Part shown: one piece after another, positions 1 through 29,192 of the stretch | Layout: each line of letters starts with the position of its first letter | Position numbering within the stretch: the stretch's first letter is position 1 | Sequence record: PV660452 | DNA: 64,000 nucleotides | Direction: 5' to 3' (one strand) | Origin: Escherichia phage LF82-9 | Notes under the pieces: model-generated | What the model saw: only the letters and a program-made list of their open reading frames with translations | Databases searched by the model: none | What the model was told of the DNA's origin: nothing | Made by a program: the position numbers and the translations under genes

Positions 1-498
1 AGAATACTTAGGACGAGTTAGACCAGAATCTTCAACTTTATTATAGCCATTGATAACAATTTTACCATCTTTATTTGTAATAGCAATTGTATCAATCTGA
101 AGACCACGTGAAACTCGAAGCAATTGTTGAAGGTCTTCAGCTTTAATTTCAGTAATCACAGAAGCCACTGGGAATTGAATTGGCTTATTAGGAAAAACAA
201 TGGTGCTCTTGTCGGCAGCAGGCCAATAAACTGTGGAACGTGTGTCCGCAATTTTAATATTGCCATCAGTGTGCATTGAAATTTCAGCATCGTCAGACAC
301 TAGACTCAAAATGCTTAAGAAGCTATTCAAATCATAAAGTGCTACGTCAAAATCAATTTCATCAGAGATATTTGCTTCCGCATAAGTGGTGCCATTAACT
401 GCACGAGTCATAATAAATTTACCTTGACTCAGCAGAATGCCGGAGTTAATAGAGGCAAAGTTTTTCAGAATAGCGATAGTATCTTTAGACAGTTTCAT
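1..498 (-). CDS. 45: Sliding clamp gp45, N-terminal portion; gene continues beyond window start
   Basis: Minus-strand translation from ATG at 498 reads MKLSKDTIAILKNFASINSG..., matching the T4 gp45 N-terminus from memory; SD AAGGAAA upstream. Confidence 0.85.
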   Translation of the reverse strand, partial: MKLSKDTIAILKNFASINSGILLSQGKFIMTRAVNGTTYAEANISDEIDFDVALYDLNSFLSILSLVSDDAEISMHTDGNIKIADTRSTVYWPAADKSTIVFPNKPIQFPVASVITEIKAEDLQQLLRVSRGLQIDTIAITNKDGKIVINGYNKVEDSGLTRPKYS

Positions 499-540
499 TT
501 TATTTCCTTTCAAGACAATTCAAAGTTTATAACAAATTTA

Positions 541-957
541 TTATGCAGCAACCATCTGCTTTTTAATAGCTTCAGGCAGTGATTCAATATATTCTGGAAT
601 TTTAGAAGCAACAATTTCGCCAGCTGCAATTAATTGTTCATCGGCATCAACGCAGTAGAAATCTTCCAGGCGCTCAGAACCATCTTTATCAAGAACGATT
701 TTTCCACCTGCTTCAATAGAATCTTTAAAGTGCTTACGCATCAGATGAATCCACATATCAGATACATCGTTATCAATAAAACCATAAATCATAAAACGAG
801 TTTCTTGTGGCAAAGATTGAAGCTTTTTAGCACTTGCGTCATCACAATGCAGGACCCATGCTTTACGAACACGATTATGGTTATGCGGGTTAGCGTCAGT
901 ACGGATAGAAGTAACTTTCAGATCAGCAGCAGTGAAACCTTTAGCAGTAGTAAACAT
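541..957 (-). CDS. Hypothetical 138 aa protein at the position of T4 rpbA (RNA polymerase-binding protein); identity not verified
   Basis: ORF track; ATG at 957 with upstream GAGAGAAA; sits between genes 46 and 45 as rpbA does in T4. Confidence 0.5.
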   Translation of the reverse strand: MFTTAKGFTAADLKVTSIRTDANPHNHNRVRKAWVLHCDDASAKKLQSLPQETRFMIYGFIDNDVSDMWIHLMRKHFKDSIEAGGKIVLDKDGSERLEDFYCVDADEQLIAAGEIVASKIPEYIESLPEAIKKQMVAA

Positions 958-969
958 ATTATTTCTCTC

Positions 970-1158
970 TTATTCGTAGAAGTCAGTAACTGTCCATGCG
1001 GAATTGCGATTAGACATTATTTTATTATACTCATCTTTAAAAGCAGATTTGAGCATTTGTTCAGTAACAATATGTTCTTCACCTGAAAACGTATTGGTCA
1101 AAACATATTTTTTAATTTCAGGGACAACAAGAAGATGTTGTCCGGTTGAATACTCCAT
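970..1158 (-). CDS. Hypothetical small protein (62 aa from second ATG)
   Basis: ORF track 970..1170; start moved to ATG at 1158, which has SD GGAG 6-7 nt upstream. Confidence 0.45.
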   Translation of the reverse strand: MEYSTGQHLLVVPEIKKYVLTNTFSGEEHIVTEQMLKSAFKDEYNKIMSNRNSAWTVTDFYE

Positions 1159-1212
1159 GTTGTTCTCCATTTAATTTGATGTGGTCATTATAACCACATC
1201 GTGTTAAAGCGT

Positions 1213-2901
1213 TTATGAAACAGTCATTACAGTAAATCGTCCAACTTTACTCATCTGAAGATGTTGTCCATAACGTTGAGGGTCATGGTCTCGATGAGAG
1301 ATAATGAACACGTTAGTATTTTGTAAACTTCCAAGAATGGTATCTATAGCCTTAACAGCTTCAGAATCTACAGCGCCGTCAAAAACCTCATCAAGAATCA
1401 ACGTGTTGATTTTAACACCAGAAACTTTTTCAGCAATATCTCGCCATGTAAACAACAATGCGATATCGATACGTGCCTTTTCACCTTGACTAAATGAAGC
1501 ATAACTAAAATCTTCACGACCACGTGATTTTATAGATTCATTGAATTCTTCGTCAATAGAAAACACATAATCAGCTTCCATGATTTTAAGGTAATGGTTA
1601 ATCTGCTTGTTGAACAGAGGCACATATTTTTTAATGATAGCACCTTTAATACCAGAATCTTTTAACATATCTGTTATAATACCACGATGGTATTTTTCAA
1701 GAACGTTATCCGATTTTGTTTTAATGATTTTATCAAGTTCTTTTTGAAGCAAAGCTATCTCATCGGCATGGTCGATAAATTCCGCCGAGGCTTGTTCTAT
1801 TGCAGCTTTAACTTTCTTAGCTTTATCAATAGTGGCAATCATTGCTTGTTTCTTGGTACGAATATCAGATGCAAGGTCCTGTTTAGTCTTAACATTAGCT
1901 CTATATTCGTCCACTAGGACACTCAGATTATCTCTGTGACAGGTAAGTTGCTCGAATGAGTGATTACATTCATGAAGCTTATCGGTAATCTTAGAGACAA
2001 TAGGATCACCCTGGTGCAACTGTGATGCACAAGTAGGACATGTGCCACCGTCATGATACATCTTAATAACTTTGTTGTATGAGTCGATTTTAGATTTAAT
2101 CAAGAATGCTTCTTGTCCTATCTTGTTGAATGCCTCAGTAGGGTCTTCATCAAGAACGATATTAAGTAGTCGCTCATTAGCTTCTTCGATTTCCGCTTTT
2201 AATGAACGAGCTTCTTTGGCTAGGTCGTCATACATATTCTGTAGACGCGCTACATTATCACCAGATAATTTCTTTTGACGTTCGATATTCTCGTTATAAA
2301 TCTTAATTTGTTGGATAACACCATCTTTCTTAGCATCGAGAACTTGTCCCTGGGAATTAAGTTCTCGAACTTGAGACTTATTGATTTTATCCATTTCAGC
2401 GAGTGTGCCGACTTCTAAAAGGTCTTCGACAAGTTTTCTACGAGCAGGGGTGCTAAGAGCCATGAAAGGGGTATACCCTGCCGTCCCAAGCACAACGATC
2501 TGTTTAAAAGACGCGTATGACATTCCGATGCTACGTTCAAATTCTTCTTGGAAGTCACGACTGCTGGCAGATTCATCGAGACGAACACCGTCAACGGAGA
2601 TTTCGAAAATATTGGGCTTTTGGCCTCGTTTAATGAAGTATTTTTTATCATCGAATTCCATCCAAAGCTCAACTAAGAGCTCTTTCTTGTTCGTGCTATT
2701 AATGATTTGTCCTTTCTTAACATCACGAAATGGTTTACCGAAAAGTCCGAAAGTAATGGCTTCTAACATCGTAGATTTACCACCGCCATTTTTACCAGTG
2801 ATTAATGTCTTTTGGACTTTATCTAATTGGATATCAATAGGATTCCCACCTACCGACATGATGTTTTGATAACGAACACGATTTAATTTAAATGATTTCA
2901 T
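1213..2901 (-). CDS. 46: Recombination endonuclease subunit gp46 (Rad50/SbcC-like ATPase)
   Basis: 562 aa; N-terminus MKSFKLNRVRYQNIMSVG and Walker A GKNGGGKST match T4 gp46; coiled-coil middle; C-terminal FIISH motif. Confidence 0.92.
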   Translation of the reverse strand: MKSFKLNRVRYQNIMSVGGNPIDIQLDKVQKTLITGKNGGGKSTMLEAITFGLFGKPFRDVKKGQIINSTNKKELLVELWMEFDDKKYFIKRGQKPNIFEISVDGVRLDESASSRDFQEEFERSIGMSYASFKQIVVLGTAGYTPFMALSTPARRKLVEDLLEVGTLAEMDKINKSQVRELNSQGQVLDAKKDGVIQQIKIYNENIERQKKLSGDNVARLQNMYDDLAKEARSLKAEIEEANERLLNIVLDEDPTEAFNKIGQEAFLIKSKIDSYNKVIKMYHDGGTCPTCASQLHQGDPIVSKITDKLHECNHSFEQLTCHRDNLSVLVDEYRANVKTKQDLASDIRTKKQAMIATIDKAKKVKAAIEQASAEFIDHADEIALLQKELDKIIKTKSDNVLEKYHRGIITDMLKDSGIKGAIIKKYVPLFNKQINHYLKIMEADYVFSIDEEFNESIKSRGREDFSYASFSQGEKARIDIALLFTWRDIAEKVSGVKINTLILDEVFDGAVDSEAVKAIDTILGSLQNTNVFIISHRDHDPQRYGQHLQMSKVGRFTVMTVS

Positions 2902-3152
2902 ATGTATTCTCTTCGAATGAAGTCCTCTACATATTTTAACATGTCATCCCTATCAGCAAAATATTCATCTAGTTCTGCATACATAACAACACCTGGTGCG
3001 TACTCACAGGTAACATACATTGTTCCAAAGAAACGAGGAGTTGATTCCTCGTAATTCTCAGTCCATTCAACGATACCAATATAACCGTCACCAATACTAA
3101 ATTCATGACGATGGATTTCATAATCAGTCTTCGTCATTATACGCATCCTCAA
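2898..3152 (-). CDS. Hypothetical acidic protein (84 aa), translationally coupled between 47 and 46
   Basis: ORF track; 4-nt overlaps with both neighbours. Confidence 0.5.
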   Translation of the reverse strand: MRMRIMTKTDYEIHRHEFSIGDGYIGIVEWTENYEESTPRFFGTMYVTCEYAPGVVMYAELDEYFADRDDMLKYVEDFIRREYI

Positions 3153-3381
3153 TACACGCTTCAGCCATTTTAAGAATAGAGCCAGGAGTATCGTTGTCCA
3201 TTATATTAAAGCTAAATTCAACAGCCCAGTCGGTGCAGACATGAACTGCTTTAACTTCATTGCCTTCAACACGTAATGGCTCAATCCAATACTTGATAGT
3301 GTTCTCGAATCCATCATCATCTTTAACGTCTATTTCAACTTCAAGCCCGAGCCCAGCATTGTTAAATTCATCTAAAGTCAT
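3124..3381 (-). CDS. Hypothetical acidic protein (85 aa) between 47 and 46
   Basis: ORF track; start overlaps the gp47 stop. Confidence 0.5.
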   Translation of the reverse strand: MTLDEFNNAGLGLEVEIDVKDDDGFENTIKYWIEPLRVEGNEVKAVHVCTDWAVEFSFNIMDNDTPGSILKMAEACIEDAYNDED

Positions 3382-4397
3382 TGTGTTGCCTCAATATAAA
3401 GTTCGTTGGAATATTTAACCAGCGCTTCTCTGTCTTCGTTTGAGATATCTGGAATCGCGTCAATATATTCTTTAATGATATCTTGAAGTGATTTAATCTC
3501 GATTTCCTGGTCGTCATCAGATTCAACACTGTTATCAACTTTAGAAACCATACGAAGAGAGTGAACTACTTTTTCAAGTTCAGATTCAAATTTAGTCAAC
3601 TCTGAATCAATTTCTGATACTATAACACGTACGGCTAGATTAGTATAATCAGAATAATTGATTTTGCCTTTAAATGGATAAGTGATTCGTCGATGCCATG
3701 TTGTTTCATTAGGAATAAATTCCATACGTTCAACATCAGTGTCAAATACCCAGAATCCGCGAGGGTCGTTCTCGTCACCTGCAGTAAGGGTCCATGGTGT
3801 CCCAATATATTTGACGTTAGCAGCTTCAGAGATTGTGTGGAAGTGGCCAGACCAGACTTGTTTATAGGTCTTTAAGAAATCAGGTTCAAGCCCATGAGAC
3901 TTCATTCCTTTATAGAAATAAAAGCCGTTCAGTTCCCAGTGGCCAACACAATACGCGGCAGAAGAAGTCTTGATGTGCTCTAAGATTTCACCTGTATTTT
4001 CTTCACACATCCATGGAACGATATCAATCAGACATCCGTCAAAATCTACAGTAGTTGGATGCTCGTAAATAGTAAAGTTTTCAAATTGAGTCAACAATTC
4101 AGAAACAGTGTTAGGTGTTATTGTATTCTTAAACGCCATGTCATGGTTTCCTATCGTGACATGAACGTGAATGCCTGCTTTAGAAATCATATCAACGATT
4201 TCACGATTGAATTCCATTGTACGATGTGTTATTGCTTTACGGACGTCAAACCAATCACCGTACTGAATCCAAGTTTTAATCCCGTGTTTCTTAGAGTATT
4301 CAATTGCTTGACGAATACCATCACGTTGAATATCTTGGACCCATGGGTCGTCTTGTTTGACTCCGATATGGAAGTCGCCTAAGTGCAAAATTTTCAT
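3378..4397 (-). CDS. 47: Recombination endonuclease subunit gp47 (Mre11/SbcD-like nuclease)
   Basis: 339 aa, same length as T4 gp47; phosphoesterase motifs GDFH, GDWFD, GNHD, GHWE, GHFH. Confidence 0.92.
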   Translation of the reverse strand: MKILHLGDFHIGVKQDDPWVQDIQRDGIRQAIEYSKKHGIKTWIQYGDWFDVRKAITHRTMEFNREIVDMISKAGIHVHVTIGNHDMAFKNTITPNTVSELLTQFENFTIYEHPTTVDFDGCLIDIVPWMCEENTGEILEHIKTSSAAYCVGHWELNGFYFYKGMKSHGLEPDFLKTYKQVWSGHFHTISEAANVKYIGTPWTLTAGDENDPRGFWVFDTDVERMEFIPNETTWHRRITYPFKGKINYSDYTNLAVRVIVSEIDSELTKFESELEKVVHSLRMVSKVDNSVESDDDQEIEIKSLQDIIKEYIDAIPDISNEDREALVKYSNELYIEATQ

Positions 4398-4443
4398 ATT
4401 ATTTCCTCATTAGTTAATTCATTCTATCATCCGTTTATAAAGC

Positions 4444-4467
4444 AAAAAAGGAACTCCGAAGAGTTCC
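4444..4467 (-). terminator. Intrinsic terminator hairpin (GGAACTC-ttcg-GAGTTCC) plus U-run on the minus-strand transcript
   Basis: Perfect 7-bp inverted repeat at 4450-4467 followed on the minus strand by TTTTTT (plus-strand AAAAAA 4444-4449). Confidence 0.6.
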
Positions 4468-4640
4468 TATCCACATAGTACACCGTACAGAGGCTCATTT
4501 GAACTTTTAAATCGAATGGGCTTGTACGTAATAGTTCCTTCGGCTTTAGCTTTATCATAAGACTCTTTAAAACGTCTCATTCTTTCTGCTTTGCCTTTAC
4601 GGATTTTATCGAAATTTTCAGAAGTCGGGATGTTCGTCAT
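4467..4640 (-). CDS. Hypothetical small basic protein (57 aa); below the ORF-track size cutoff
   Basis: Manual translation MTNIPTSENFDKIRKGKAERMRRFKESYDKAKAEG...; SD GAGGTG upstream; terminator directly after the stop. Confidence 0.45.
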   Translation of the reverse strand: MTNIPTSENFDKIRKGKAERMRRFKESYDKAKAEGTITYKPIRFKSSNEPLYGVLCG

Positions 4641-4679
4641 GCATAAGCACCTCTCAGAAAATGCCTAAATCGATTTCTC

Positions 4680-4901
4680 TCATCGTTTCCACCATTTCTT
4701 AACTTGAAATGAATCAACCCACACGAGTTGTTTTGGGTCTGCCTTTACAATAGGCGGACAAATTTCTGTAATAGAACCGTCGTGATATTCCTTTTCGGAA
4801 ATTTTAACACAAAGAGGACCTCCCAATTTAAGGGAGAACCCTGCGTTCAGCTTCAGACGTTTAAACTTTGTTTGAACTAGCGCCATTAATGATGTCCTCA
4901 A
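4680..4901 (-). CDS. Hypothetical protein (73 aa)
   Basis: ORF track only; start uncertain. Confidence 0.35.
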   Translation of the reverse strand: MRTSLMALVQTKFKRLKLNAGFSLKLGGPLCVKISEKEYHDGSITEICPPIVKADPKQLVWVDSFQVKKWWKR

Positions 4902-5184
4902 TAGCCTGACGAGTAGTAATCCACTGGATTTTAATTAACTTGTCATTGTATGGTTGTCGTAGAATATCCCGAGATTTCTTAATAGCATATTCGTAAGCTT
5001 CGAAGTTGTTTTGAATTGCTGCTTCTTGAGCATGTGCATAAAGACGGTTTAGTTCAAAACGATTCTTTTTAAGAATCTTTTCGGATTTTTTACGTGCTTC
5101 AGCTTCATTTTTCTTTTGGATTTCTTGTAGCATTTTAGCTACTGCATCTTCTGCTTCTTTATTTTCAATAATCTCGGTAGTCAT
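4861..5184 (-). CDS. Hypothetical protein (107 aa), K/E-rich helical
   Basis: ORF track; lies where alpha-glucosyltransferase sits in T4. Confidence 0.45.
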   Translation of the reverse strand: MTTEIIENKEAEDAVAKMLQEIQKKNEAEARKKSEKILKKNRFELNRLYAHAQEAAIQNNFEAYEYAIKKSRDILRQPYNDKLIKIQWITTRQAIEDIINGASSNKV

Positions 5185-5185
5185 A

Positions 5186-5401
5186 TTATCTCATTAAATT
5201 AAAATAAAAACGTCCATCCTCTTCAATACAGAACTCGTACTCAACTGGAGTCCCATTTATTGAAAATGACACGTCATGTGGGTTCAAAGGGTCGATGTCA
5301 AAATTAATTTTAAATTCACGACCCAACAGTTTTACCAAATAAGGGATTGCTTCGTCAAAAGGTTCTTCTAAGTAGTTAGAGATGTCAATTGTCATCCTCA
5401 T
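5186..5401 (-). CDS. Hypothetical protein (71 aa)
   Basis: ORF track 5186..5479 trimmed to the internal ATG (MRMTIDIS...) so it no longer overlaps gene 55. Confidence 0.4.
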
Positions 5402-5942
5402 ATAAAAAATCCAAACTAGGCGAATCGCTAACAACTTCCTTCTTTTCAGCCCCAGGAGCTTTATAAGCGGATTCTTCATAATGCGTCATTTTATCGTAGA
5501 TGTCTTGAATAAACGTTTCATCTACCAACGCTACCATATCATCGTCATGACTGTCGTAGACATTATGAACGAAGTAACTATATTTCTTTGCAACTTCCTT
5601 ACGTTCTTTTTTGATACGTTGGACAAAAGCATTAAAACAAGCTCGAGTTATGTATGCATGTGGGTTATTGTACTTAGTTTCGTCGAAATTATGAAGTCCC
5701 TTAATAGAGGCTTCAATCCCATCTGCAATCATCTCCTGCTTCCAAGACTGGGTATATCCTGAAAAGTTGAAACGTTTGGACAGGCCTTCGGCGATAAGCA
5801 TAATTGCTAAACCGATGGTATCATTCTGACGAATAATTTTGTTTGGGTCTTTATTATTTAAGAGCTCCTTTTTCCACTCGATTATAGCGGCGAGAAGCTC
5901 TTTATTATTCACATAGTTATTTTTAGGTTTTTGTTCAGTCAT
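5385..5942 (-). CDS. 55: Late-transcription sigma factor gp55
   Basis: 185 aa from ATG at 5942 (SD AGAGG); sequence ...[23 protein letters not shown]...[39 protein letters not shown] matches T4 gp55 from memory. Confidence 0.9.
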
Positions 5943-5963
5943 AAGTACCTCTTGGCTCAATTC

Positions 5964-5996
5964 ATAGGTCTATTATATCATAATATTTAGAGACCT
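5964..5996 (-). promoter_or_regulatory. Stem-loop-embedded TATAAT element upstream of gene 55 (promoter-stem-loop cassette; -35 weak)
   Basis: 8-bp inverted repeat ATAGGTCT/AGACCTAT enclosing minus-strand TATAAT. Confidence 0.35.
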
Positions 5997-6014
5997 ATCT
6001 TAAAGCACGAGATA

Positions 6015-6284
6015 CTATCGGAGCAAACAATAAGCCTGGAATACTTTTTCCATTAAACGTTTGAACTCATGGATATCGATATAAAGCTCGGTTAATCCAG
6101 CTCCATAAAGAAAATCTAAAAAGTTCTCATGTGTTTCGTTATAGTCGCCTTCGTTTAATTGAGATACATGAGTTTCCCAAAAACCGACACCTTTAACAAA
6201 TGGAAAATACGTAACTTTCATAAAGTTGTCGACGTAAAATTCGCCCAGCTTTTCTTCAGTTATACTGATTCGAGTTAATTTCAT
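6015..6284 (-). CDS. Hypothetical protein (89 aa)
   Basis: ORF track; coupled 4-nt overlap with the upstream gene. Confidence 0.45.
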   Translation of the reverse strand: MKLTRISITEEKLGEFYVDNFMKVTYFPFVKGVGFWETHVSQLNEGDYNETHENFLDFLYGAGLTELYIDIHEFKRLMEKVFQAYCLLR

Positions 6285-6508
6285 TCTAGTTCCTTTGCTG
6301 CAAATAAGGCAGCATCCAATGAATCAAATTGGTCAACGAAATCAATATTCAACGCATCGTCAACCGTAGCATATAACCACCATTGTTTGAATTCGTATTC
6401 TAGAATAAATCCAGGACCTTCAATCTGAGGAAGACCTAGGCTATTTGTACCAACTTCGTAACCAGCTAGACGCAGGTCATTAATCAAAGTTTCTGTTAAT
6501 ACGCTCAT
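6281..6508 (-). CDS. Hypothetical acidic protein (75 aa)
   Basis: ORF track. Confidence 0.45.
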   Translation of the reverse strand: MSVLTETLINDLRLAGYEVGTNSLGLPQIEGPGFILEYEFKQWWLYATVDDALNIDFVDQFDSLDAALFAAKELE

Positions 6509-6837
6509 TTTGCCGCCTTAACAATTTTCAGGTCAACGAATTTTTTCTTACGTTGATTTTTCATACGACGGATAGTCTTTTCAGAGATTTCATGTTTCTG
6601 ATAAGCTTTAGATTCAACACCAAATGCAGCAACGTCAAATTCAGAAAGAATATATTGTACTAGAATTTCACGAATAGAATTACGTCCAATTTTCTGGTCG
6701 TGTTTTTGCATGATTTCATAAAGACGGAATTCCCACGCGTCAAGAACTTGAGGAGTAACAATACCACCTTTTTCTAGAAGACTAACAACTTTATCGAAAG
6801 CGAAAGAGTTCACTACGTTTTTGATTTTAGTAGACAT
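6505..6837 (-). CDS. Hypothetical protein (110 aa from ATG MSTKIKN)
   Basis: ORF track 6505..6876 begins at a TTG; ATG at 6837 is preceded by GAGGAAAATAAT. Confidence 0.5.
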   Translation of the reverse strand: MSTKIKNVVNSFAFDKVVSLLEKGGIVTPQVLDAWEFRLYEIMQKHDQKIGRNSIREILVQYILSEFDVAAFGVESKAYQKHEISEKTIRRMKNQRKKKFVDLKIVKAAK

Positions 6838-6868
6838 ATTATTTTCCTCTGTTATTTTATTATCCAAC

Positions 6869-6905
6869 GAGAGCATTATACTCTGCTCTCAAGAGTTTGT
6901 GCGTT
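6869..6905 (-). promoter_or_regulatory. Promoter-stem-loop cassette (TATAAT inside 7-bp stem GAGAGCA/TGCTCTC); near-identical copy at 36955-36998
   Basis: Minus-strand TATAAT; 44-nt segment repeated with one mismatch 30 kb away. Confidence 0.45.
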
Positions 6906-8431: not shown

Positions 8432-8755
8432 TCAATCTTCTATGATATCAGAGTCGTATCCTAATGAAATCAAGGACTTTTTAAACTCTGCAATATTCTT
8501 TTGTTTCTTATCATTTAAAAATATGACAGGATAACGAATATTAAGTGAAGTGAATCCTGCACGTTTAGCAAGAGATACGATTAAAGGACGGTCATATTCA
8601 ATCTTACCATTATTAGTGAGGACTTTATAAAATGTATAAGGAGCATTGAGCTCCTTTAAAAGTTTTGTAACAGTATAACATCCTGGACAACGTCCAACTT
8701 CTTCAGGGATGCCATAAATTTCAATCTTGTTCTTTAAGTTCGAGTTTTGTTCCAC
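8432..8755 (-). CDS. Glutaredoxin/NrdH-like redoxin (107 aa, GTG start inferred)
   Basis: CPGC dithiol motif in a thioredoxin-fold-sized protein near nrdG/nrdD; GTG at 8755 with AAGGA upstream; ATG-only reading would overlap the upstream ORF. Confidence 0.5.
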   Translation of the reverse strand: MEQNSNLKNKIEIYGIPEEVGRCPGCYTVTKLLKELNAPYTFYKVLTNNGKIEYDRPLIVSLAKRAGFTSLNIRYPVIFLNDKKQKNIAEFKKSLISLGYDSDIIED

Positions 8756-12584: not shown

Positions 12585-12755
12585 TCAATATTCTCTATAA
12601 AAGTTACGATGAGAACGTTTAGCTTTGCGAAGCTGACGTTTAGTAGGACGAACTGTAAATAGTTGTCCAGAGAAAAAATTCGAATCGGTTTTAATAAGCA
12701 AATACCAATCATGCTTGCCATTTTTTAATAAACGGTACAATAATTTAACTTGCAT
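12585..12755 (-). CDS. Hypothetical small basic protein (56 aa)
   Basis: ORF track 12585..12782 trimmed to ATG at 12755. Confidence 0.3.
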   Translation of the reverse strand: MQVKLLYRLLKNGKHDWYLLIKTDSNFFSGQLFTVRPTKRQLRKAKRSHRNFYREY

Positions 12756-12903
12756 AATAATCTCTTCCCATTTCCATATCAATTAATTCATTTATTGAAG
12801 GTTCATCATAACATGGTTCTTCGTCGTTGTAAACCGTTTCGACGTCTGGCTCGACAGTCTCCCATCGAGCAGAATACCACGGTTTAACCCCGGAGTTTAT
12901 TGA
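12745..12903 (-). CDS. Hypothetical small acidic protein (52 aa); below ORF-track cutoff
   Basis: Manual translation MKSSINSGVKPWYSARWETVEPDVETVYNDEEP... Confidence 0.3.
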   Translation of the reverse strand, partial: SINSGVKPWYSARWETVEPDVETVYNDEEPCYDEPSINELIDMEMGRDYYAS

Positions 12904-13219
12904 GCTCTTCATAATCAATCCAGGATTCTAGCCCTGACGGCAGGTCACATTCAATGTTCCACAGAAGCTCTTCAATGGCTTGCAGGCGATTATATTCTTC
13001 AACAGTAATAGTAACCATTGTTTCAGGCTTTTTAACCATCATGTCATTCATCAGAATGTACAGATCTTCACAAACAGCCGGGTCGTCCCATGTCCATATT
13101 TCAGCATCTCGAACCAATGAAGTCGGAATAGAATTTAAAACTTCAAGCTTAGTAGGAGCGTCAGGACCGAGAAGAGTTGCTACAAATTTATATGCTTTGG
13201 CGAAATCAATATCGTTCAT
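12884..13219 (-). CDS. Hypothetical acidic protein (111 aa)
   Basis: ORF track; start region duplicates the nrdC-end/next-gene junction sequence. Confidence 0.5.
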   Translation of the reverse strand: MNDIDFAKAYKFVATLLGPDAPTKLEVLNSIPTSLVRDAEIWTWDDPAVCEDLYILMNDMMVKKPETMVTITVEEYNRLQAIEELLWNIECDLPSGLESWIDYEELNKLRG

Positions 13220-13238
13220 TTAAAATATTCTCGCAGTT
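13216..13238. repeat. 23-bp direct repeat, copy 1 (TCATTTAAAATATTCTCGCAGTT)
   Basis: Exact match to 13530-13552; each copy spans a start codon and its leader. Confidence 0.8.
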
Positions 13239-13534
13239 TATTGTTCTACCCAGGCACAGGAAACTTCGAAATCAGGACCACCGTATTCCCAGTGATATTC
13301 ACCAACAGGAATCCAGTCACCGTGCTCGTTTTCTTCGTAGTCTTCAGGTTCAAGACCAACGAATCGCCATTGAACACCTATGATTCGATTACCCATTAAT
13401 ATACGAAATTCACCCCATGGATTATCGATAGCATATTGGATATCGTTCTTAGCACGAGAACACATTTCTTGATATAACAAAGCTTCTAATTCGCCCTGAT
13501 CATAAGGGCCCGGGAAAGTTAAATCAATACTCAT
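13238..13534 (-). CDS. Hypothetical protein (98 aa) bounded by 23-bp direct repeats
   Basis: ORF track; ATG overlaps the nrdC stop (ATGA); W/E/Y-rich. Confidence 0.5.
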   Translation of the reverse strand: MSIDLTFPGPYDQGELEALLYQEMCSRAKNDIQYAIDNPWGEFRILMGNRIIGVQWRFVGLEPEDYEENEHGDWIPVGEYHWEYGGPDFEVSCAWVEQ

Positions 13535-13552
13535 TTAAAATATTCTCGCAGT
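13530..13552. repeat. 23-bp direct repeat, copy 2 (overlaps the nrdC 3-prime end)
   Basis: Exact match to 13216-13238. Confidence 0.8.
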
Positions 13553-13794
13553 TGGTCAAATCCACCAATATGACTTCCATCAGGAGCAAATACTTGAGGC
13601 ATAGTCAATCCAACTTGTGATTCACGTCCTAGTTTATTCAGAAGCTCGTCAATTTTTTCTTCATCAAATACACCTTTCTCTGGCATAACATTAATGAATT
13701 CGAATGGCTGTTTCTTAACAGTCAGCAATCGTTTCGCATTATCACAATAAATGCATTTATGAATAGTAGAGTCATACCCGTACACTTTAAACAT
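13531..13794 (-). CDS. nrdC: Thioredoxin/glutaredoxin NrdC
   Basis: MFKVYGYDSTIHKCIYCDNAKRLL...MPQVFAPDGSHIGGFDQLREYFK matches T4 NrdC from memory; start set at the ATG giving 87 aa. Confidence 0.9.
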   Translation of the reverse strand: MFKVYGYDSTIHKCIYCDNAKRLLTVKKQPFEFINVMPEKGVFDEEKIDELLNKLGRESQVGLTMPQVFAPDGSHIGGFDQLREYFK

Positions 13795-14200
13795 TATTTT
13801 TCCTTTCATCGATTAAATATGCAATGCCAAATACAATACATGTAATAAAACCTGTGATACAGATAGAAACCAACAACACTGTACCAAAGAACCAAATCAA
13901 GTTATCTTTAGTAGTTTGTTTGATATCCATCTCACGAATTTCTATAGCTATCGTATCACCTTTATTCAGAAGCGTATAAAACGACGGTGATACACGCCTG
14001 TCAAAAACTCGTCCTTGCTCATCTTTATAGACTGCAATAAATTCTAATTTAGAATATTTTCCTGTAGATTGGCCTGAGATTAATTCCACTACCTCCACAG
14101 GAATTACTTTAGTTTCCATGTAAGTATTCTGACTGTTCCAAATGAATGGAATAACGGCAAAAACTAAAGCTGCGATAAAACAACGAAGGCTATATCTCAT
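13787..14200 (-). CDS. Hypothetical membrane protein (137 aa; N- and C-terminal hydrophobic segments)
   Basis: ORF track; hydrophobic stretches at both ends. Confidence 0.5.
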   Translation of the reverse strand: MRYSLRCFIAALVFAVIPFIWNSQNTYMETKVIPVEVVELISGQSTGKYSKLEFIAVYKDEQGRVFDRRVSPSFYTLLNKGDTIAIEIREMDIKQTTKDNLIWFFGTVLLVSICITGFITCIVFGIAYLIDERKNNV

Positions 14201-14505
14201 TATAATATTCTCTCAAATTTGTGGAAGCATTTACGGCATTTCAATTTCAAGTTATCAGTGGTCCAGTTAACCAGTTGGACTTGGATAGTTCCACATTCCG
14301 GGCATGGATGTTTTGCTGCTGATTTGGCAGCATTTTCACGTCGTTCAACCATTTTCATTATTTCGTTCCATGCTGGAGGAACGAACTCTTCTTCACCGTG
14401 GATTTTATCTCGCTGAACAAATTCAATCTTTGAACTATCGTCAATAAACTTAACCAAGCCATGATTAGTGCTCATATCAATATCCTCTAAAAGACGTAGT
14501 TTCAT
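14200..14505 (-). CDS. Hypothetical zinc-ribbon protein (101 aa)
   Basis: CPECG...CRKCFHKF four-cysteine motif at the C-terminus. Confidence 0.5.
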   Translation of the reverse strand: MKLRLLEDIDMSTNHGLVKFIDDSSKIEFVQRDKIHGEEEFVPPAWNEIMKMVERRENAAKSAAKHPCPECGTIQVQLVNWTTDNLKLKCRKCFHKFERIL

Positions 14506-15455
14506 TATAACACCTCAATGGCATTTCGTAAACCGTCCGCTTTCGCATTCAGAGCTTTTAACGATTTAGTCTGTTCTTTAATCTGGGCTTCGACTTCTTT
14601 CAGACGAGATTTGAGATATTCACGTTCTTCGCTCAAGTTGTCAACTTTTTCTACTTTAGGTTCTTTAATAGTCTTAAGTTTATACTCGTTAGGGTTCTTC
14701 AGCTTAATTCGGGTGCGAGAACTGTATAACATTGAACCGTTATCTTCGGATTCGTCGAACGTTTCAACAACATCCATAGTCTCTAACAATGTAATAAGTT
14801 TATAAGACAATGAACGAACGGTTTTGTTATGCTTATTAATTTCTTCAGCTTTCATGGTACCGAGATTACGTGAGTAGTAATAAGGAACCTGGATATCAAT
14901 TGATAATGATGCGTTACCATTACCGGTCGGTTTGAATACTGCAGTAACCCAATCTTTAACATGAACTTTATTTGTACGACCATCACCGCCCGTGAATAAT
15001 TTACGAGAATGTTTAAAAAGCATATTCACTTGGTTATTGAATTCACAAGCAAATTTATCAGCGAATTTAGTTTCAGGAATGGTAGATAACCAATCAGCCA
15101 AATGAGTCTTTTTAACATCATTAATAATAGTGAATTCAACCAAATCAGTTTTAGATGTCACAGATTTAATAAAGCTCGGTTTCATAAAGTTTTTAATGTT
15201 ATCGCGAGCTACAGTAGAAGATAATAAACGAGAACGTTTGAACCATTGAAGCAGTGTCCCTAATGAATGAGAATACGCATTCTGAGTATCTTTACAGATA
15301 TGATTTTCTTGACCTGTGTATGTACCAAAATCGCGAAGAATACCACTTACTACATCTCGGTGTGGAACATCAAATCCTAGTGCACCAACAGCGCGCTGGG
15401 CACGAACGTTAGCGATAAGACCGGCAAAGTATTCAATGTAATGTGAACGTGTCAT
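14505..15455 (-). CDS. Hypothetical protein with C-terminal coiled coil (316 aa); first of three similar-sized genes
   Basis: ORF track; C-terminal ~60 aa K/E/L heptad-like; own upstream promoter cassette. Confidence 0.6.
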   Translation of the reverse strand: MTRSHYIEYFAGLIANVRAQRAVGALGFDVPHRDVVSGILRDFGTYTGQENHICKDTQNAYSHSLGTLLQWFKRSRLLSSTVARDNIKNFMKPSFIKSVTSKTDLVEFTIINDVKKTHLADWLSTIPETKFADKFACEFNNQVNMLFKHSRKLFTGGDGRTNKVHVKDWVTAVFKPTGNGNASLSIDIQVPYYYSRNLGTMKAEEINKHNKTVRSLSYKLITLLETMDVVETFDESEDNGSMLYSSRTRIKLKNPNEYKLKTIKEPKVEKVDNLSEEREYLKSRLKEVEAQIKEQTKSLKALNAKADGLRNAIEVL

Positions 15456-15480
15456 AATATTTTCCTCTCGTTAAGATAGA

Positions 15481-15513
15481 TTTATTATACTCCAACCATC
15501 CTTGGTTGTAAAC
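15481..15513 (-). promoter_or_regulatory. Early-promoter cassette (TTTACA-N17-TATAAT with spacer hairpin); 30-bp exact repeat of 16501-16530
   Basis: Minus strand reads GTTTACAACCAAGGATGGTTGGAGTATAAT; CAACCA/TGGTTG inverted repeat. Confidence 0.6.
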
Positions 15514-15517
15514 CGTT

Positions 15518-16477
15518 TTATGATTTTAATGCATTCATTGCATTAAAAAGTTTAGAGTACTGCAACTGGAGATTCGTTACAACACTTTGAGCATCACGAA
15601 GCTTAGCTTGTGCTTTGTCAAGTTCAACGGACAGTTGGTCTGCAGTAGCCTTGATTTGGTTGTAATGATAATCTTCGGCCGGAAGAAGGTCATTAGAAAC
15701 ATTTAGTTTTACTGCCGACAGTTTGCACACATTTGGCAAACCTTTAAACATACCGGGTTGTGTCGGAGAATATGCGCTTAGAACCTCTGCATTACCGACT
15801 GGTGTTGCTGTAATATTGCCTTCAAACAATGCATTTTCCTTTTTAAGATTTTGATAGTATTCAGAGTCTTTGTGCCACCATGGCGCAGGAACCTTTTTAC
15901 CAATAGATACACGAGCCTGGATAGCGATATGGCCCTTATTCTTGATAGGGTCGATAATATTAAGCTCACGAGAATAAATTGCTTTAATTTGGTGAATATT
16001 ATCACCTAACACTTCCAACGCTTGGTGGAATACACGAGCAACGTTATCGTTCTTAGGTTTATATGTAAGAGTGAACTCGTTCTCACTGATAACCATGATT
16101 TCTAACTTATCGTAAGTATATTTCAAATGTTTCATGTTAATTGCTTGAGGACGAATACGAGAAGCAATGGCCATCAGATTGTTAAGGTTATTTCGGAACT
16201 GTTTAGCGAAATATTGTCCTTCACCGCCGATACAAAAATTACGAAGTTTCTGTTTGGCTAATAAACGGCTGAACTCACCATTTTTAATGAACTCTTTAAC
16301 GGGTGTGTTAGTAATGCATTCAAATTGAGTAAACATACGAGAATTAATCCCATAATATGAACAGATTTCCTCAATCTCTTCAGGAGTCTTTACAGGCATA
16401 CGGATAGGATTAGGTCCTGGAGTATATGCGTTCGAGGTAAATTCTTTGATAAGTTCTCTACGTGTAATAAAAGCCAT
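15518..16477 (-). CDS. Hypothetical protein with C-terminal coiled coil (319 aa); second of three
   Basis: ORF track; flanked by 30-bp direct repeats. Confidence 0.6.
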   Translation of the reverse strand: MAFITRRELIKEFTSNAYTPGPNPIRMPVKTPEEIEEICSYYGINSRMFTQFECITNTPVKEFIKNGEFSRLLAKQKLRNFCIGGEGQYFAKQFRNNLNNLMAIASRIRPQAINMKHLKYTYDKLEIMVISENEFTLTYKPKNDNVARVFHQALEVLGDNIHQIKAIYSRELNIIDPIKNKGHIAIQARVSIGKKVPAPWWHKDSEYYQNLKKENALFEGNITATPVGNAEVLSAYSPTQPGMFKGLPNVCKLSAVKLNVSNDLLPAEDYHYNQIKATADQLSVELDKAQAKLRDAQSVVTNLQLQYSKLFNAMNALKS

Positions 16478-16500
16478 TTTATATTCCTCATGTTGAAAAA

Positions 16501-16532
16501 TTTATTATACTCCAACCATCCTTGGTTGTACA
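16501..16532 (-). promoter_or_regulatory. Early-promoter cassette (TGTACA-N17-TATAAT); 30-bp exact repeat of 15481-15510
   Basis: Sequence identity with 15481-15510; sigma70-like spacing. Confidence 0.5.
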
Positions 16533-17528
16533 TCATTCCTTAAGAAGTTTTACTACTTGAATAAGATTAGCTCGTTCTGTTTTATTTTTACCGTTTAAGC
16601 CTGCTAATCGTGAGATTTCATCGTCAGTCTGTTGAATAGTTACATTAAGTTCGTTAATCAAAGCTTCAAAGTATTTGATTTGCTCAGCATGTTTTGATTC
16701 AAATTTCTGAACCGGAATAACGTCTTGGTTCAGTCCATCAATAAGGTCTTTAAGAGCATCTTCTTGGTTGATATCATATTCAACTTCCTTTATTTCTTCA
16801 ACGAGCTCGTCTTTATATCTAACGTCTTTTAGTCCTGGTGCTGGTCCTGAAATCTCTTCTTTAAGAGTACAAACATACCCAATACGGTATCCAATGCCGT
16901 CTCGCTTGATATCAACTTCGTCGATAAATCCACAATGTTTAAGTCCAGAGCCGATTATGTCAAAATATCCTTGACGACGTCCTTCAAACGTTACACGAAC
17001 TACTAAGACAGTTTTGCCACCGACCTTTTGAAGCTCACATTTATAAAAGTCCGTTGAACCTGAATAACGTGGATGAGTTTTAAAGTTCATCTGACGATCT
17101 AGGCCCATTTGTAAACGTGCTGTTACGGCCATAAAACGTGTTTGGTTCTCGTTAAGATGAGCAACAATCCATTTCAAAGGCATTTTACACTGTTCACGAC
17201 CGAACAAATCAGTACGTCCTAGATTACGCAGGATGTTGTTAGAGTTAATCATCGACAGAACGTTAAGTTTATTCAACGCGCTGAAGATTCCGTCAGCCAT
17301 TGATTTTCCATAACCTTTACACGCTTTAATAAGTGCTCGCGGCAGATTAGTATAGATTTCAGACGGCATATGAAAATCAAATTTACTAGTCAGTAATTGA
17401 TGAACTTGGATAGCAATTTGCTCATAATTAAGTGCTCTGCGATCGTTATGGTCTTTAAACCACACTTTAATCTGTGAAGCACATAAACCGTTAATTTCAT
17501 GTTTTACCGCATCAGATGTAATGCTCAT
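16533..17528 (-). CDS. Hypothetical protein with C-terminal coiled coil (331 aa); third of three
   Basis: ORF track; C-terminal heptad-like region. Confidence 0.6.
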   Translation of the reverse strand: MSITSDAVKHEINGLCASQIKVWFKDHNDRRALNYEQIAIQVHQLLTSKFDFHMPSEIYTNLPRALIKACKGYGKSMADGIFSALNKLNVLSMINSNNILRNLGRTDLFGREQCKMPLKWIVAHLNENQTRFMAVTARLQMGLDRQMNFKTHPRYSGSTDFYKCELQKVGGKTVLVVRVTFEGRRQGYFDIIGSGLKHCGFIDEVDIKRDGIGYRIGYVCTLKEEISGPAPGLKDVRYKDELVEEIKEVEYDINQEDALKDLIDGLNQDVIPVQKFESKHAEQIKYFEALINELNVTIQQTDDEISRLAGLNGKNKTERANLIQVVKLLKE

Positions 17529-17563
17529 AACTATTTCCTCAGATTGAATTGGAACTCAAAACC

Positions 17564-17590
17564 ATTATAACCCGTCCTTGGGTAAAGCGT
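17564..17590 (-). promoter_or_regulatory. Candidate middle-type promoter (MotA-box-like GCTTTA ~13 nt upstream of TATAAT)
   Basis: Minus strand AAACGCTTTACCCAAGGACGGGTTATAAT; spacing matches T4 middle promoters, box has one mismatch to TGCTT. Confidence 0.3.
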
Positions 17591-18118
17591 TTATGCGTGA
17601 ACCGTCTTTAAACGTTCTTCAAATTTCCGAAGAGTACTAATACGTTCTGCTTTCTGTTTTGTATAGTTTGCAATACGTTCTGAAGTGAGAGCGTATCGTT
17701 CGTTTACTGTTTCTTTCATGAAGTCAGGGATTTCACGAGAAGCTTTAATTTCATCAAACTTGTCGAGTACTGCCTGGTCTTCAGCGATTAAATTTTCGTA
17801 CATCTCGATATCTTTCTTGATAAACTCGATATCTTCCTGGGTTACTTTGGATAAACGAGACGCTTTATCCTTTTTGTACTGCTCGTTAGTTTCACGAGAC
17901 CAGAATAATGTACGTTTTTTGTTAGTGTTTTTGTAGACTTCCACAATTCCAACTGAATCGATGATAACAATCCAATTCCAGCGAGATTTGAAAATCTGAC
18001 CTCCGTCCACGGTAATCTCGTTATCATAAGCAACGTCATTAAAGAACTTGCTCTGTGCTTCAGATTTAAATTTACCGTCGTTATAATTTACCAGGTTGAA
18101 AATATCTTTAGCGTTCAT
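17591..18118 (-). CDS. Hypothetical protein (175 aa)
   Basis: ORF track; promoter cassette upstream. Confidence 0.5.
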   Translation of the reverse strand: MNAKDIFNLVNYNDGKFKSEAQSKFFNDVAYDNEITVDGGQIFKSRWNWIVIIDSVGIVEVYKNTNKKRTLFWSRETNEQYKKDKASRLSKVTQEDIEFIKKDIEMYENLIAEDQAVLDKFDEIKASREIPDFMKETVNERYALTSERIANYTKQKAERISTLRKFEERLKTVHA

Positions 18119-18145
18119 GTTTTACCTCCAGTAGTTGATAGGTCT

Positions 18146-18174
18146 ATAATAACACAACCATAGACCTTGTAAAC
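18146..18174 (-). promoter_or_regulatory. Early promoter with stem-loop (GTTTAC-N17-TATTAT; AGGTCTAT/ATAGACCT stem)
   Basis: Minus strand GTTTACAAGGTCTATGGTTGTGTTATTATAGACCTATCAAC. Confidence 0.6.
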
Positions 18175-18176
18175 AA

Positions 18177-18464
18177 CTAAAAGAAACTTTTTTCAGTATT
18201 TTTTCCACTGAACCAAACCGACTTCGGGGTTTTCTGTAACTTTTCAGATTTAAGTTTCTCTTCCTGTTCTTTCTTATATACACTCTTGTCGTACTGGAGC
18301 ATCTCTATGGCATTCTTTTGCAAACGATCTAAGGTAATTAAGGCTTTAGTTTTTCCTTTCAAGGAAGAGTCCTGGCGAACCTCCTCGCTATATTGCATTG
18401 TAGAACTAACCATACGATGAGCATAGAGTTCGACTGCGGCTTTAATTTTTTGCATAAAATCCAT
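18177..18464 (-). CDS. Hypothetical protein (95 aa), K/E-rich
   Basis: ATG at 18464 with SD AGAGGA. Confidence 0.5.
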   Translation of the reverse strand: MDFMQKIKAAVELYAHRMVSSTMQYSEEVRQDSSLKGKTKALITLDRLQKNAIEMLQYDKSVYKKEQEEKLKSEKLQKTPKSVWFSGKNTEKSFF

Positions 18465-18565
18465 AACATATCCTCTTTGATTTGTACATCATTATTTTTA
18501 AATATTTCTATGCCCTCAGTAGGTTCCTGGTGTCCTTCTTTGAGGTAAGCCATATGATTATTCAT
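18359..18565 (-). CDS. Questionable small ORF (68 aa) overlapping the previous gene
   Basis: ORF track only; 106-nt out-of-frame overlap and weak RBS. Confidence 0.2.
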   Translation of the reverse strand: MNNHMAYLKEGHQEPTEGIEIFKNNDVQIKEDMLWILCKKLKPQSNSMLIVWLVLQCNIARRFARTLP

Positions 18566-18602
18566 CTTTATGGCTTTTGTTACCTCAGGACTTCCTGTAA
18601 GC

Positions 18603-19583
18603 TTATTTCAGTAAAGTTACTTCAGAGATTTCCTCCCAACCATCTTTATCAGTTGAAATAAAATCTGCCACATAAAGAGCCGTACGTAATGATACATTGC
18701 GAAGACGAGACACGTTAGCCTTCATCCAGGACAATGCTTTGTACGTTTCAGCATTAGTCAAGCCACGTTTCTGCATCATGTCAGTAGATAATATTACATC
18801 TTCAACTCGAACCATAATCTCTTCATTAGAGTGTACTCCAAGGTCGAGATACACTGAACGAGATACTAAAGCTTGAAGGTGCGGAGCAAGTTTCGAACCG
18901 CGTTCTAACTCTTTATCGATATCAACGTTTGTAATGAAAACAATAGTACCTTCAAACTCAAATTCTTTATCGATACCCTTATCATCAAGATAAGATGATG
19001 CAGTGCTCCAGCAAACTTTGCGTTTATCATCAGTATCTAATGCTGCTTTAAGAAGGTTCAAGATATCTATATCCGAGAATACATCAACATCGTCGATTAA
19101 GAGAACGCTGTCTGCATCACGGTTGAGCCAAAGTTGTTCGTAAAGGCCAATACCAGAGATTTTACCATTAATGCTTTTGTATTTGATGAAACCATTATCA
19201 TTAGCATTATTAAGCGCTTTATCCAGAGAATACGTCTTACCAATACCAGCTGCACCTGAAATAATGAGTGAACGAATTTTGCCATCGATAATGCCATTCG
19301 TCATCATGTTCATTACTTTAAAGCGTTTGTTGATACGAGTTTTCATATCTTCAGTGCTTTCAACAACTGCAACTGGTGTCGTCTCAACTCCTTCCATTAC
19401 GATGTCTGATTTGAAGACCCATACTCCACGTTCAGAACCATCAATCATAACGAAAATTTTACCGTCACCTAAGTGGGAACATTCAGGATTAAGCTTTGCT
19501 GGGAACCATGTCTTTGTGGCAACATAAGAACCGGAGATTTCATTATTACGATAGATACCTTTTTTGATTTGAACGTTGAACAT
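18603..19583 (-). CDS. AAA+-type P-loop ATPase (326 aa) with a ~110 aa N-terminal domain
   Basis: Walker A GAAGIGKT, Walker B VLLIDDVD, sensor-1-like VFITN; ATG at 19583 with SD GGAG. Confidence 0.7.
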   Translation of the reverse strand: MFNVQIKKGIYRNNEISGSYVATKTWFPAKLNPECSHLGDGKIFVMIDGSERGVWVFKSDIVMEGVETTPVAVVESTEDMKTRINKRFKVMNMMTNGIIDGKIRSLIISGAAGIGKTYSLDKALNNANDNGFIKYKSINGKISGIGLYEQLWLNRDADSVLLIDDVDVFSDIDILNLLKAALDTDDKRKVCWSTASSYLDDKGIDKEFEFEGTIVFITNVDIDKELERGSKLAPHLQALVSRSVYLDLGVHSNEEIMVRVEDVILSTDMMQKRGLTNAETYKALSWMKANVSRLRNVSLRTALYVADFISTDKDGWEEISEVTLLK

Positions 19584-19622
19584 TTTATTCTCCAAATTTA
19601 CTCATTTCGTTTTGATAGGTCT

Positions 19623-19651
19623 ATAATAACATATCCTAAAAACATGTACAC
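19623..19651 (-). promoter_or_regulatory. Candidate early promoter (GTGTAC-N17-TATTAT)
   Basis: Sigma70-like spacing upstream of the ATPase gene; degenerate -35. Confidence 0.4.
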
Positions 19652-19679
19652 TACTTTTTAAAAATATTTTGACCCCCTA

Positions 19680-19697
19680 AAGGGCCCGAAGGCCCTT
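19680..19697 (-). terminator. Hairpin AAGGGCC-ttcg-GGCCCTT after the nucleotidyltransferase gene; U-run not immediately adjacent
   Basis: 7-bp perfect inverted repeat with TTCG loop just past the stop at 19699. Confidence 0.45.
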
Positions 19698-19698
19698 A

Positions 19699-24494: not shown

Positions 24495-24682
24495 AATGAA
24501 TTTATATAATCAATAAGTTCTTGCTCTTTATCGTCAAAATCTTTACACAGTTCTTCGTATTCGTCAGTATTAAAAGGACCGCATTCATTACAAACTTTTT
24601 CCAATTCGCTATTTTTATCCATAACTTCGTGGATAAGAGAAAAGAGTTTGTCTTTTTGTTCTTTACTTAAACTCATAACCAT
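24491..24682 (-). CDS. Hypothetical small acidic protein (63 aa)
   Basis: ORF track. Confidence 0.45.
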   Translation of the reverse strand: MVMSLSKEQKDKLFSLIHEVMDKNSELEKVCNECGPFNTDEYEELCKDFDDKEQELIDYINSL

Positions 24683-28745: not shown

Positions 28746-28826
28746 TTAGTTTCTCTTTTAGGTTGGGCCATTCCGTGGCGCATGAATTGTCCATTTCTGT
28801 ATTTACCCCTCTAAGTAATTATGAAT

Positions 28827-28856: not shown

Positions 28857-28858
28857 TG

Positions 28859-29161: not shown

Positions 29162-29192
29162 TTTTTGTTTCCTTGTTTGTTTTGATAGAGTA

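Follow-up and report, generated by a model that had tools for sequence, protein, structure and literature searches.

Introduction

In phage T4, genes 47 and 55 are separated by 3152 nt, with the gene order 47, 47.1, a-gt, mobB, a-gt.2, a-gt.3, a-gt.4, a-gt.5, 55. Edgell et al. (PMC2988022) list mobB among the free-standing HNH genes, with its insertion site between a-gt and a-gt.2. Phage RB69 lacks the glucosyltransferase genes a-gt, b-gt and ba-gt, its DNA carries arabinose and not glucose, and ORF003c was proposed as its transferase (Thomas et al. 2018, PMC6024577). Lee et al. 2026 (PMC13326640) revised the RB69 base to mono- and di-arabinosyl-5-hydroxycytosine, with ions of m/z 376.13 and 508.18, showed that gp48 converts dCMP to 5hodCMP, and identified which genes activate the sugar and which encode the transferases. 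Phage CC31 is reported to have homologues of b-gt and ba-gt (PMC6024577). The sugar on cytosine determines which restriction, type IV and CRISPR defences a phage escapes, and also its ability to recombine with T4-type phages. Stem-loops that are followed by promoters are a second known feature of these genomes and have been described as PeSL and PmSL cassettes (Arbiol et al. 2010, PMC2839356; Comeau et al. 2014, PMC4122927), the promoter-middle stem-loop (PmSL) elements having been defined by Comeau et al. 2014 (PMC4122927).

Here we describe the gene 47-gene 55 interval of Escherichia phage LF82-9 in a stretch of 64,000 nt (record PV660452), which is called the window below and corresponds to 64 kb of a genome of about 170 kb.

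Organization of the gene 47-gene 55 interval

The interval between genes 47 and 55 covers positions 4398-5384 (987 nt), and all genes in the region lie on the minus strand. The following features were recognized:

1213-2901, minus strand: gene 46
3378-4397, minus strand: gene 47, SbcD/Mre11-like recombination nuclease subunit, 339 aa (Pfam Metallophos)
4405-4408, minus strand: Shine-Dalgarno GAGG of gene 47, read from the sequence (...TGAGGAAATAATATG)
4421-4447, minus strand: putative MotA-dependent middle promoter of genes 47 and 46 (regular-expression match)
4444-4468, minus strand: predicted intrinsic terminator (terminator scan, fold, covariation count and alignment)
4467-4640, minus strand: a-gt.2 orthologue, 57 aa, DUF5486 (Pfam E = 4.5e-28; phrog_2140)
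4680-4886, minus strand: a-gt.3 orthologue, 68 aa (homology; phrog_1648)
4861-5184, minus strand: a-gt.4 orthologue, 107 aa, DUF2654 (Pfam E = 1.6e-27)
5186-5401, minus strand: a-gt.5 orthologue, 71 aa, DUF5491 (Pfam E = 1.4e-12)
5385-5942, minus strand: gene 55, late-transcription sigma factor, 185 aa from the annotated ATG (homology and annotation)

The two flanking genes are annotated as such in both LF82-1 and RB69; gp47 is 75.5% identical to T4 gp47 over 339 aa, and gp55 is 90.7% identical to its T4 counterpart. Gene 55 and the genes from a-gt.5 to a-gt.2 follow one another in tight packing. The a-gt.5 gene shares 17 nt with the 3' end of gene 55, and its longest reading frame extends to 5479 (97 aa). 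The a-gt.3 frame comprises 73 aa (4680-4901) if counted from a TTG at 4901, but the product is likely the 68-aa protein that starts from the ATG at 4886; a GAGGA Shine-Dalgarno sequence lies 9 nt upstream of this ATG, and the length of 68 aa is in line with the 68 aa of a-gt.3 in RB69 and the 67 aa in T4. Two open reading frames of 50 and 31 aa on the plus strand of the interval were unsupported and were dismissed. An Rfam scan of the whole window returned tRNAs only, none of them inside the interval.

The comparison with T4 revealed the same flanking genes 47 and 55, the same block from a-gt.2 to a-gt.5, and the same hairpin and MotA box after a-gt.2. What T4 has in addition amounts to 2165 nt, namely 47.1, a-gt (400 aa, a GT-B alpha-glucosyltransferase) and mobB (HNH homing endonuclease), together with a second copy of the hairpin and MotA box downstream of a-gt that the window lacks. 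The T4-type a-gt locus, i.e., an open reading frame of about 400 aa between a-gt.2 and 47 or 47.1, is absent from the window. RB69, the type Mosigvirus, shows the identical order 47, a-gt.2, a-gt.3, a-gt.4, a-gt.5, 55, with the a-gt.2 to a-gt.5 names used in its annotation, its intergenic hairpin and promoter differ from those of the window by one base, and there is no substantive difference between the two phages at this locus. The absence of a-gt from this site is shared by Dhakavirus JS98 and Karamvirus CC31, which keep a-gt.3 to a-gt.5 and one hairpin/MotA-box module; JS98 keeps 47.1, and CC31 has a different ORF of 82 aa in the position of a-gt.2.

The four small proteins show 76, 69, 58 and 47% identity to T4 a-gt.2, a-gt.3, a-gt.4 and a-gt.5, respectively (75.9% for a-gt.2), and 94.7, 98.5, 99 and 100% identity to those of RB69. 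Judged by these similarities and by their order, they are orthologues of T4 a-gt.2 to a-gt.5 and not replacements of a-gt, because T4 itself has them beside a-gt. The original prediction, which had placed no alpha-glucosyltransferase gene between genes 47 and 55 and had described an interval of less than 1 kb with four small ORFs, was thus correct on both points, apart from the likely shorter length of its 73-aa frame. Its wording that the small ORFs are present instead of a-gt does not hold, as they are the neighbours of a-gt in T4. The T4 gene order on which it was based was right in having a-gt (1203 nt) between genes 47 and 55 and incomplete in omitting 47.1, mobB and a-gt.2 to a-gt.5.

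Three of the four small proteins belong to Pfam DUF families, a-gt.3 having no Pfam match, and all four fall into PHROGs families of unknown function. A PHROGs family named "head maturation protease" that came up for a-gt.2 was judged to be mislabelled. No relatives of a-gt.2 to a-gt.5 were found among solved structures, and our literature search on these proteins found no papers on them. Since they are kept in glucosylating and arabinosylating genera alike, their occurrence is independent of the sugar chemistry.

The window belongs to an RB69-like phage

A megablast search with the interval and its flanks gave 100% identity to ten Escherichia phage LF82-n records and 99.3% identity to phage p000v, which is placed in Mosigvirus (ICTV). 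LF82-1, the closest complete genome, is 99.9% identical to the window over 1-35081 and 41935-64000 and differs only in the tRNA region (35-42 kb), which is also where the genome of the window mainly differs from RB69. Positions 34500-42500 of the window are covered to at most 78% by any GenBank phage record in the collection. Exact-protein look-ups found two Logan contigs in SRR33571397, a sample with a fragmented assembly; contig_66 (L015) is 100% identical to window positions 1-6898, and contig_69 (L023) is 100% identical to positions 36969-49398, including part of the tRNA region. The window was accordingly assigned to this sample as its source. The window is that of a Mosigvirus, an RB69-like T-even phage, and its gene 47-gene 55 interval is the standard layout of this genus, which lacks a-gt.

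Another explanation of the missing gene would be that it was deleted recently in this one isolate, or is lacking there through an artefact of the assembly. The hairpin/MotA-box module is present on both sides of a-gt in T4-type genomes and forms a short direct repeat, and recombination between its copies could remove the gene. Against this, the same 987-nt layout is present in RB69 and in independent Logan contigs, and 146 phage records cover at least 80% of the interval query in one piece, so that the layout is a trait of the lineage and not the deletion of one isolate. Neither a remnant of a-gt in the window (tblastn) nor a close relative (>98% identity in genes 47 and 55) with a-gt at this site among the best interval matches was found, and we regard an event restricted to this isolate as extremely improbable. 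Homologues of a-gt are present in 657 records, and in Tequatrovirus and Klebsiella Jiaodavirus (66% identity) the gene lies at this very site.

Search for glucosyltransferase genes

The standard layout by itself does not indicate which base modification a phage makes. JS98 and CC31 share the layout without a-gt, and CC31 is reported with b-gt and ba-gt; an empty a-gt slot is therefore not diagnostic of a different modification. It could be supposed that the slot reflects a relocation, in which a glucosyltransferase (a-gt, b-gt or ba-gt) outside the window glucosylates hydroxymethylcytosine, as the b-gt slot of T4, between uvsX and gene 42, lies outside the window and CC31-type phages without a-gt at the site still have b-gt and ba-gt reported (PMC6024577).

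The window and the complete LF82-1 genome were searched by tblastn (E <= 10) with T4 a-gt, b-gt, 47.1 and mobB and with RB27 ba-gt as queries. The three glucosyltransferase queries gave only chance matches in both sequences (E >= 0.04); the lowest E values for T4 a-gt, 0.53 (window) and 0.042 (LF82-1), both came from short matches at noise level. The a-gt homologue elsewhere in the genome, which the original prediction had named as the case that would speak against it, was thus sought in LF82-1 and not found. No glycosyltransferase families were found among the ten large unassigned window ORFs that were compared with Pfam or the six compared with PHROGs. The gene set for glucosylated hydroxymethylcytosine of T-even phages (b-gt or ba-gt with a gp42-type hydroxymethylase) was not found in LF82-1, in which it was judged. 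The uvsX-42 slot of LF82-1 is filled by homologues of the nucleotide kinase and arabinosyltransferase 1 of RB69, and its gene-42 position by a gene of the 5hodCMP-synthase type whose product is 25% identical to T4 gp42. As LF82-1 is nearly identical to the window and has no a-gt, b-gt or ba-gt homologue in its whole genome, a relocated glucosyltransferase is scarcely credible.

The 47.1 and mobB queries likewise returned noise, with the exception of a mobB-like HNH gene in LF82-1 at about 44.2-44.5 kb. This gene, annotated as "homing endonuclease" at 43854-44495, lies in the nrdA/nrdB region and is unrelated to the gene 47-gene 55 locus.

Genes for arabinosylation of 5-hydroxycytosine

All arabinose genes lie outside the window. 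Contig_66, which is linked to the window by its 6.9-kb overlap at 100% identity, extends 9.4 kb to the left of the window edge, and the arabinose cluster begins on it about 5 kb left of position 1. The RB69 cluster that corresponds to this adjoining region is 96-100% identical, with values of 99.5% for gp55, 99-100% for gp52:53, 98% for gp51 and 99.5% for gp50. The genes for UDP-arabinofuranose synthesis (isomerase, bifunctional kinase/uridylyltransferase and HAD phosphatase) are all present on this contig, the gp52:53 homologue being intact with 561 aa. The contig ends inside the gp48 homologue, of which it holds the first 26 codons (gene call of 238 aa, Pfam Thymidylat_synt). The complete gp48 homologue was found in LF82-1 in the gene-42 position, with 99.2% identity to RB69. 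In LF82-1, genes with 98-99.5% identity to those of RB69 fill the positions of T4 b-gt and gene 42. The relevant genes of LF82-1 are:

gp45 homologue: nucleotide kinase, uvsX-42 slot
gp46:47 homologue: arabinosyltransferase 1, uvsX-42 slot, intact, 299 aa
gp48 homologue: 5hodCMP synthase, followed by gp50
gp51 homologue: phosphatase
gp52:53 homologue: bifunctional kinase/uridylyltransferase, intact, 561 aa
gp55 homologue: arabinose-5-phosphate isomerase
gp3 homologue: arabinosyltransferase 2, between rIIA.1 and gene 39, 366 aa

The homologues of the two transferases, gp46:47 and gp3, were seen in LF82-1 (98-99% identity) but not on the contigs of sample SRR33571397, and the gp3 homologue lies farther from the window than the cluster does. 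A homologue of arabinosyltransferase 1 is held by 348 records in all, 153 of them at 95% identity or more; separately counted, 153 records match the gene 47-gene 55 interval at 90% identity or more.

The reference record of RB69 has split ORFs for gp46/47 and gp52/53.

These genes outline how the modification would be made. The thymidylate-synthase homologue, which replaces T4 gene 42, would make 5-hydroxy-dCMP, phage enzymes would convert ribulose-5-phosphate to UDP-arabinofuranose, and the two GT-B arabinosyltransferases (the gp46:47 and gp3 homologues) are predicted to attach one or two arabinoses. Membership of the RB69-like genus implies DNA that would be arabinosylated rather than glucosylated, and the modified base of this lineage is not hydroxymethylcytosine; by analogy with RB69, it would be arabinosyl-5-hydroxycytosine in this isolate as well. 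We may also consider that the base of the isolate is unglycosylated or otherwise different (bare 5-hydroxycytosine, 5hmC or C), with the transferases absent or inactive, as no transferase gene was observed on the contigs matched to the window and RB69 itself has the split frames on record. The splits in RB69 were, however, attributed to sequencing errors (Lee et al. 2026, PMC13326640), the sugar-activation genes are conserved at 98-100% identity, and both transferase homologues in LF82-1 and the gp52:53 homologue on contig_66 are intact, so that we consider a missing or different sugar very unlikely.

Our results very probably describe an RB69-like phage with the standard interval, whose lineage arabinosylates 5-hydroxycytosine and makes no glucosyl-hydroxymethylcytosine, and which for that reason has no need of an alpha-glucosyltransferase; the DNA of this isolate presumably carries the same base modification as that of RB69. 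The hypermodification unlike that of T4 that had been predicted from the empty slot is supported by the lack of glucosyltransferase homologues, the adjacent arabinose genes and the published chemistry of RB69. The search for homologues that was proposed along with it gave only noise for a-gt and b-gt in the window and LF82-1, and it found arabinosyltransferase homologues in LF82-1. The difference from T4 was thus rightly deduced, but it is already known for the RB69-like genus. The missing a-gt brings no new biology; it is of use for genome annotation and for the choice of phages for therapy cocktails.

A hairpin and MotA box upstream of gene 47

The 69-nt spacer between a-gt.2 and gene 47 contains, in this order, the a-gt.2 stop codon, a hairpin, a run of six U residues that leads into a MotA box, 11 nt, a -10 element, GAGG and the ATG of gene 47. 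The terminator scan placed the hairpin on the minus strand at 4468-4449 (AGGAACTC-TTCG-GAGTTCCT, then TTTTTTGCTTT) with the U-tract reaching 4444, in agreement with the terminator that had been predicted at 4444-4467. The hairpin begins within the a-gt.2 stop codon and is composed of an 8-bp stem (AGGAACUC/GAGUUCCU) and a UUCG tetraloop, which are followed by U6. Its folding energy is -15.4 kcal/mol with z = -2.1, a z value that is modest when taken alone. Nine distinct homologous sequences from six phages all keep the five shared stem pairs paired (100%), and three of the five pairs show compensatory changes; the covariation of the stem is above chance, being matched by no column shuffle and by no partner shift of 1-3 columns. 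This hairpin probably ends the transcription unit that runs from gene 55 through a-gt.5 to a-gt.2.

The promoter was found with the expression (A/T)3TGCTT(T/C)A-N10-13-TAnnnT, which follows the MotA-box consensus of T4. The MotA box TTTTGCTTTA at 4447-4438 overlaps the U-tract of the terminator and is separated by an 11-nt spacer from the -10 element TAGAAT at 4426-4421. A middle promoter of the MotA type would drive genes 47 and 46, and transcription may restart into these genes from a promoter that overlaps the U-tract. The same succession of hairpin, Mot box and -10 element precedes gene 47 or 47.1 in RB69, JS98, CC31, T4, RB27 and the Klebsiella phage Mineola.

As far as its sequence allows a comparison, the window hairpin with its promoter fits a PmSL cassette and lies at an indel boundary, where whole genes are gained or missing between related phages. 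It shares with the PeSL and PmSL cassettes the stem-loop that is followed by a promoter. PeSLs, in contrast, are known mostly from hyperplastic regions and mostly with early promoters, whereas the module of the window lies between core genes and is of the Mot-box type.

Copies of the module and cassette exchange

The module is single in the window, RB69, JS98 and CC31. T4, RB27 and Mineola each have two copies, one following a-gt.2 and the other following a-gt, and these enclose a-gt between them. The left side of the window module matches the first T4 copy, after a-gt.2 (GGATAGGA...GCTTTATAAA), and on the right CGGATGATAGAAT is similar to the second T4 copy, before 47.1 (CGGAGTTTGATATAAT). 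Recombination within the shared core GCTTTATA, in either direction, would yield the single module of the window. It is possible, though we propose this only tentatively, that the junction of a-gt.2 and gene 47 is a recurrent site of cassette exchange that is defined by the hairpin and MotA-box module. If true, recombination at the module would mediate the gain and loss of DNA-sugar transferases in T-even phages, and the point at which the type of hypermodification switches would be predictable from the module. This reading is the only part of our analysis that goes beyond the literature found, and it would be mildly new.

The sister phage LF82-4 (PV660448) has a different gene at this junction, an ORF of 271 aa between the hairpin and gene 47. 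This ORF has a GIY-YIG-like N-terminus (YIVYF...FYIGST), is annotated as "HNH endonuclease", and has no Pfam match; it is preceded by TTTACA-N17-TATAGT, a promoter of the early type. The first approximately 330 nt of gene 47 in LF82-4 are 63% identical to the window, as compared to 96.5% for the remainder. These features suggest that the slot may hold a homing endonuclease with a co-converted flank. Seven of the nine Logan contigs with an identical RpbA protein are reported to have the LF82-4-type arrangement.

Predicted terminator-promoter modules around the a-gt gene

The module composed of a UUCG hairpin and a Mot box, of the promoter-middle stem-loop (PmSL) type, is found in two copies in T4, RB27 and Klebsiella phage Mineola, whose genomes encode alpha-glucosyltransferase (a-gt), at the following positions, counted within the locus compared for each phage.

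T4, 8690-8745 and 6583-6640: two copies, bracketing a-gt and mobB
RB27, 2920-2975 and 4188-4245: two copies, bracketing a-gt
Mineola, 2915-2960 and 4190-4250: two copies, bracketing a-gt

Only one copy is present in genomes that lack a-gt (the window, RB69, JS98 and CC31). This distribution is consistent with gain or loss of a cassette mediated by the PmSL modules. In Mineola (NC_055748), the annotated start of a-gt (region 2947-3000) yields a protein of 416 aa and lies just 15 nt beyond a-gt.2, similarity to T4 a-gt begins at locus position 3001, and the hairpin and Mot box fall within the 5' extension of the gene as annotated. The real start is probably located about 50 nt downstream of the annotated one.

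The slot between a-gt.2 and gene 47 is occupied by an ORF in the sister phage LF82-4.

PV660448.1, 112214-113026 (region 2441-3635 of Logan SRR33571401 contig_38): 271-aa ORF

This ORF is annotated as 'HNH endonuclease', has a GIY-YIG-like N-terminus, gave no match in Pfam and is preceded by a putative TTTACA-N17-TATAGT promoter. In LF82-4 gene 47, identity to the window is just 63% over the first ~330 nt, as compared to 96.5% for the remainder, a pattern suggestive of homing in which the flank was co-converted. N-terminal relatives, 62% identical, were found in Tequatroviruses, where their positions fit the neighbourhood of 46, 47 and a-gt; the one in HMD-9 is ~190 nt from the a-gt of that phage.

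Arabinose genes of RB69-like phages, and two regions of the window

Two arabinose-pathway genes are each split into two ORFs in the RB69 reference (NC_004928).

RB69, 24597-25497: arabinosyltransferase 1, two ORFs (gp46/gp47)
RB69, 28094-29780: kinase/uridylyltransferase, two ORFs (gp52/gp53)
LF82-1, 45852-46751: arabinosyltransferase 1, single intact ORF, 299 aa
Logan SRR33571397 contig_66, 12712-14397: kinase/uridylyltransferase, single intact ORF, 561 aa

Both splits have been attributed to sequencing errors (PMC13326640), and the intact ORFs of LF82-1 and the Logan contig agree with this.

Two further parts of the window were analyzed.

14505-20688, minus strand: downstream of nrdC, a run of ORFs, five of ~320 aa and a sixth of 175 aa
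38844-39398, minus strand: 184-aa ORF adjoining tRNA-Arg
39420-40367, minus strand: cluster of 10 tRNA genes (Arg, Asn, Tyr, Met, Thr, Ser, Pro, Gly, Leu, Gln)

By sequence, no glycosyltransferase was detected with Pfam or PHROGs among the ORFs downstream of nrdC, which gave matches to DUF7235, weak AAA/HTH hits and an RlaP-type nucleotidyltransferase, two of them matching PHROG 'unknown' families only. The tRNA genes lie in 35100-41900, the sole part of the window that diverges from LF82-1, for which only tRNA Arg and Met are annotated in this region, in contrast to the 10 genes of the window. The 184-aa ORF carries MUG113/T5orf172 (GIY-YIG-like) domains and looks like a tRNA-region homing endonuclease of the SegB type; an identical protein is encoded in several further T-even genomes and metagenome contigs.
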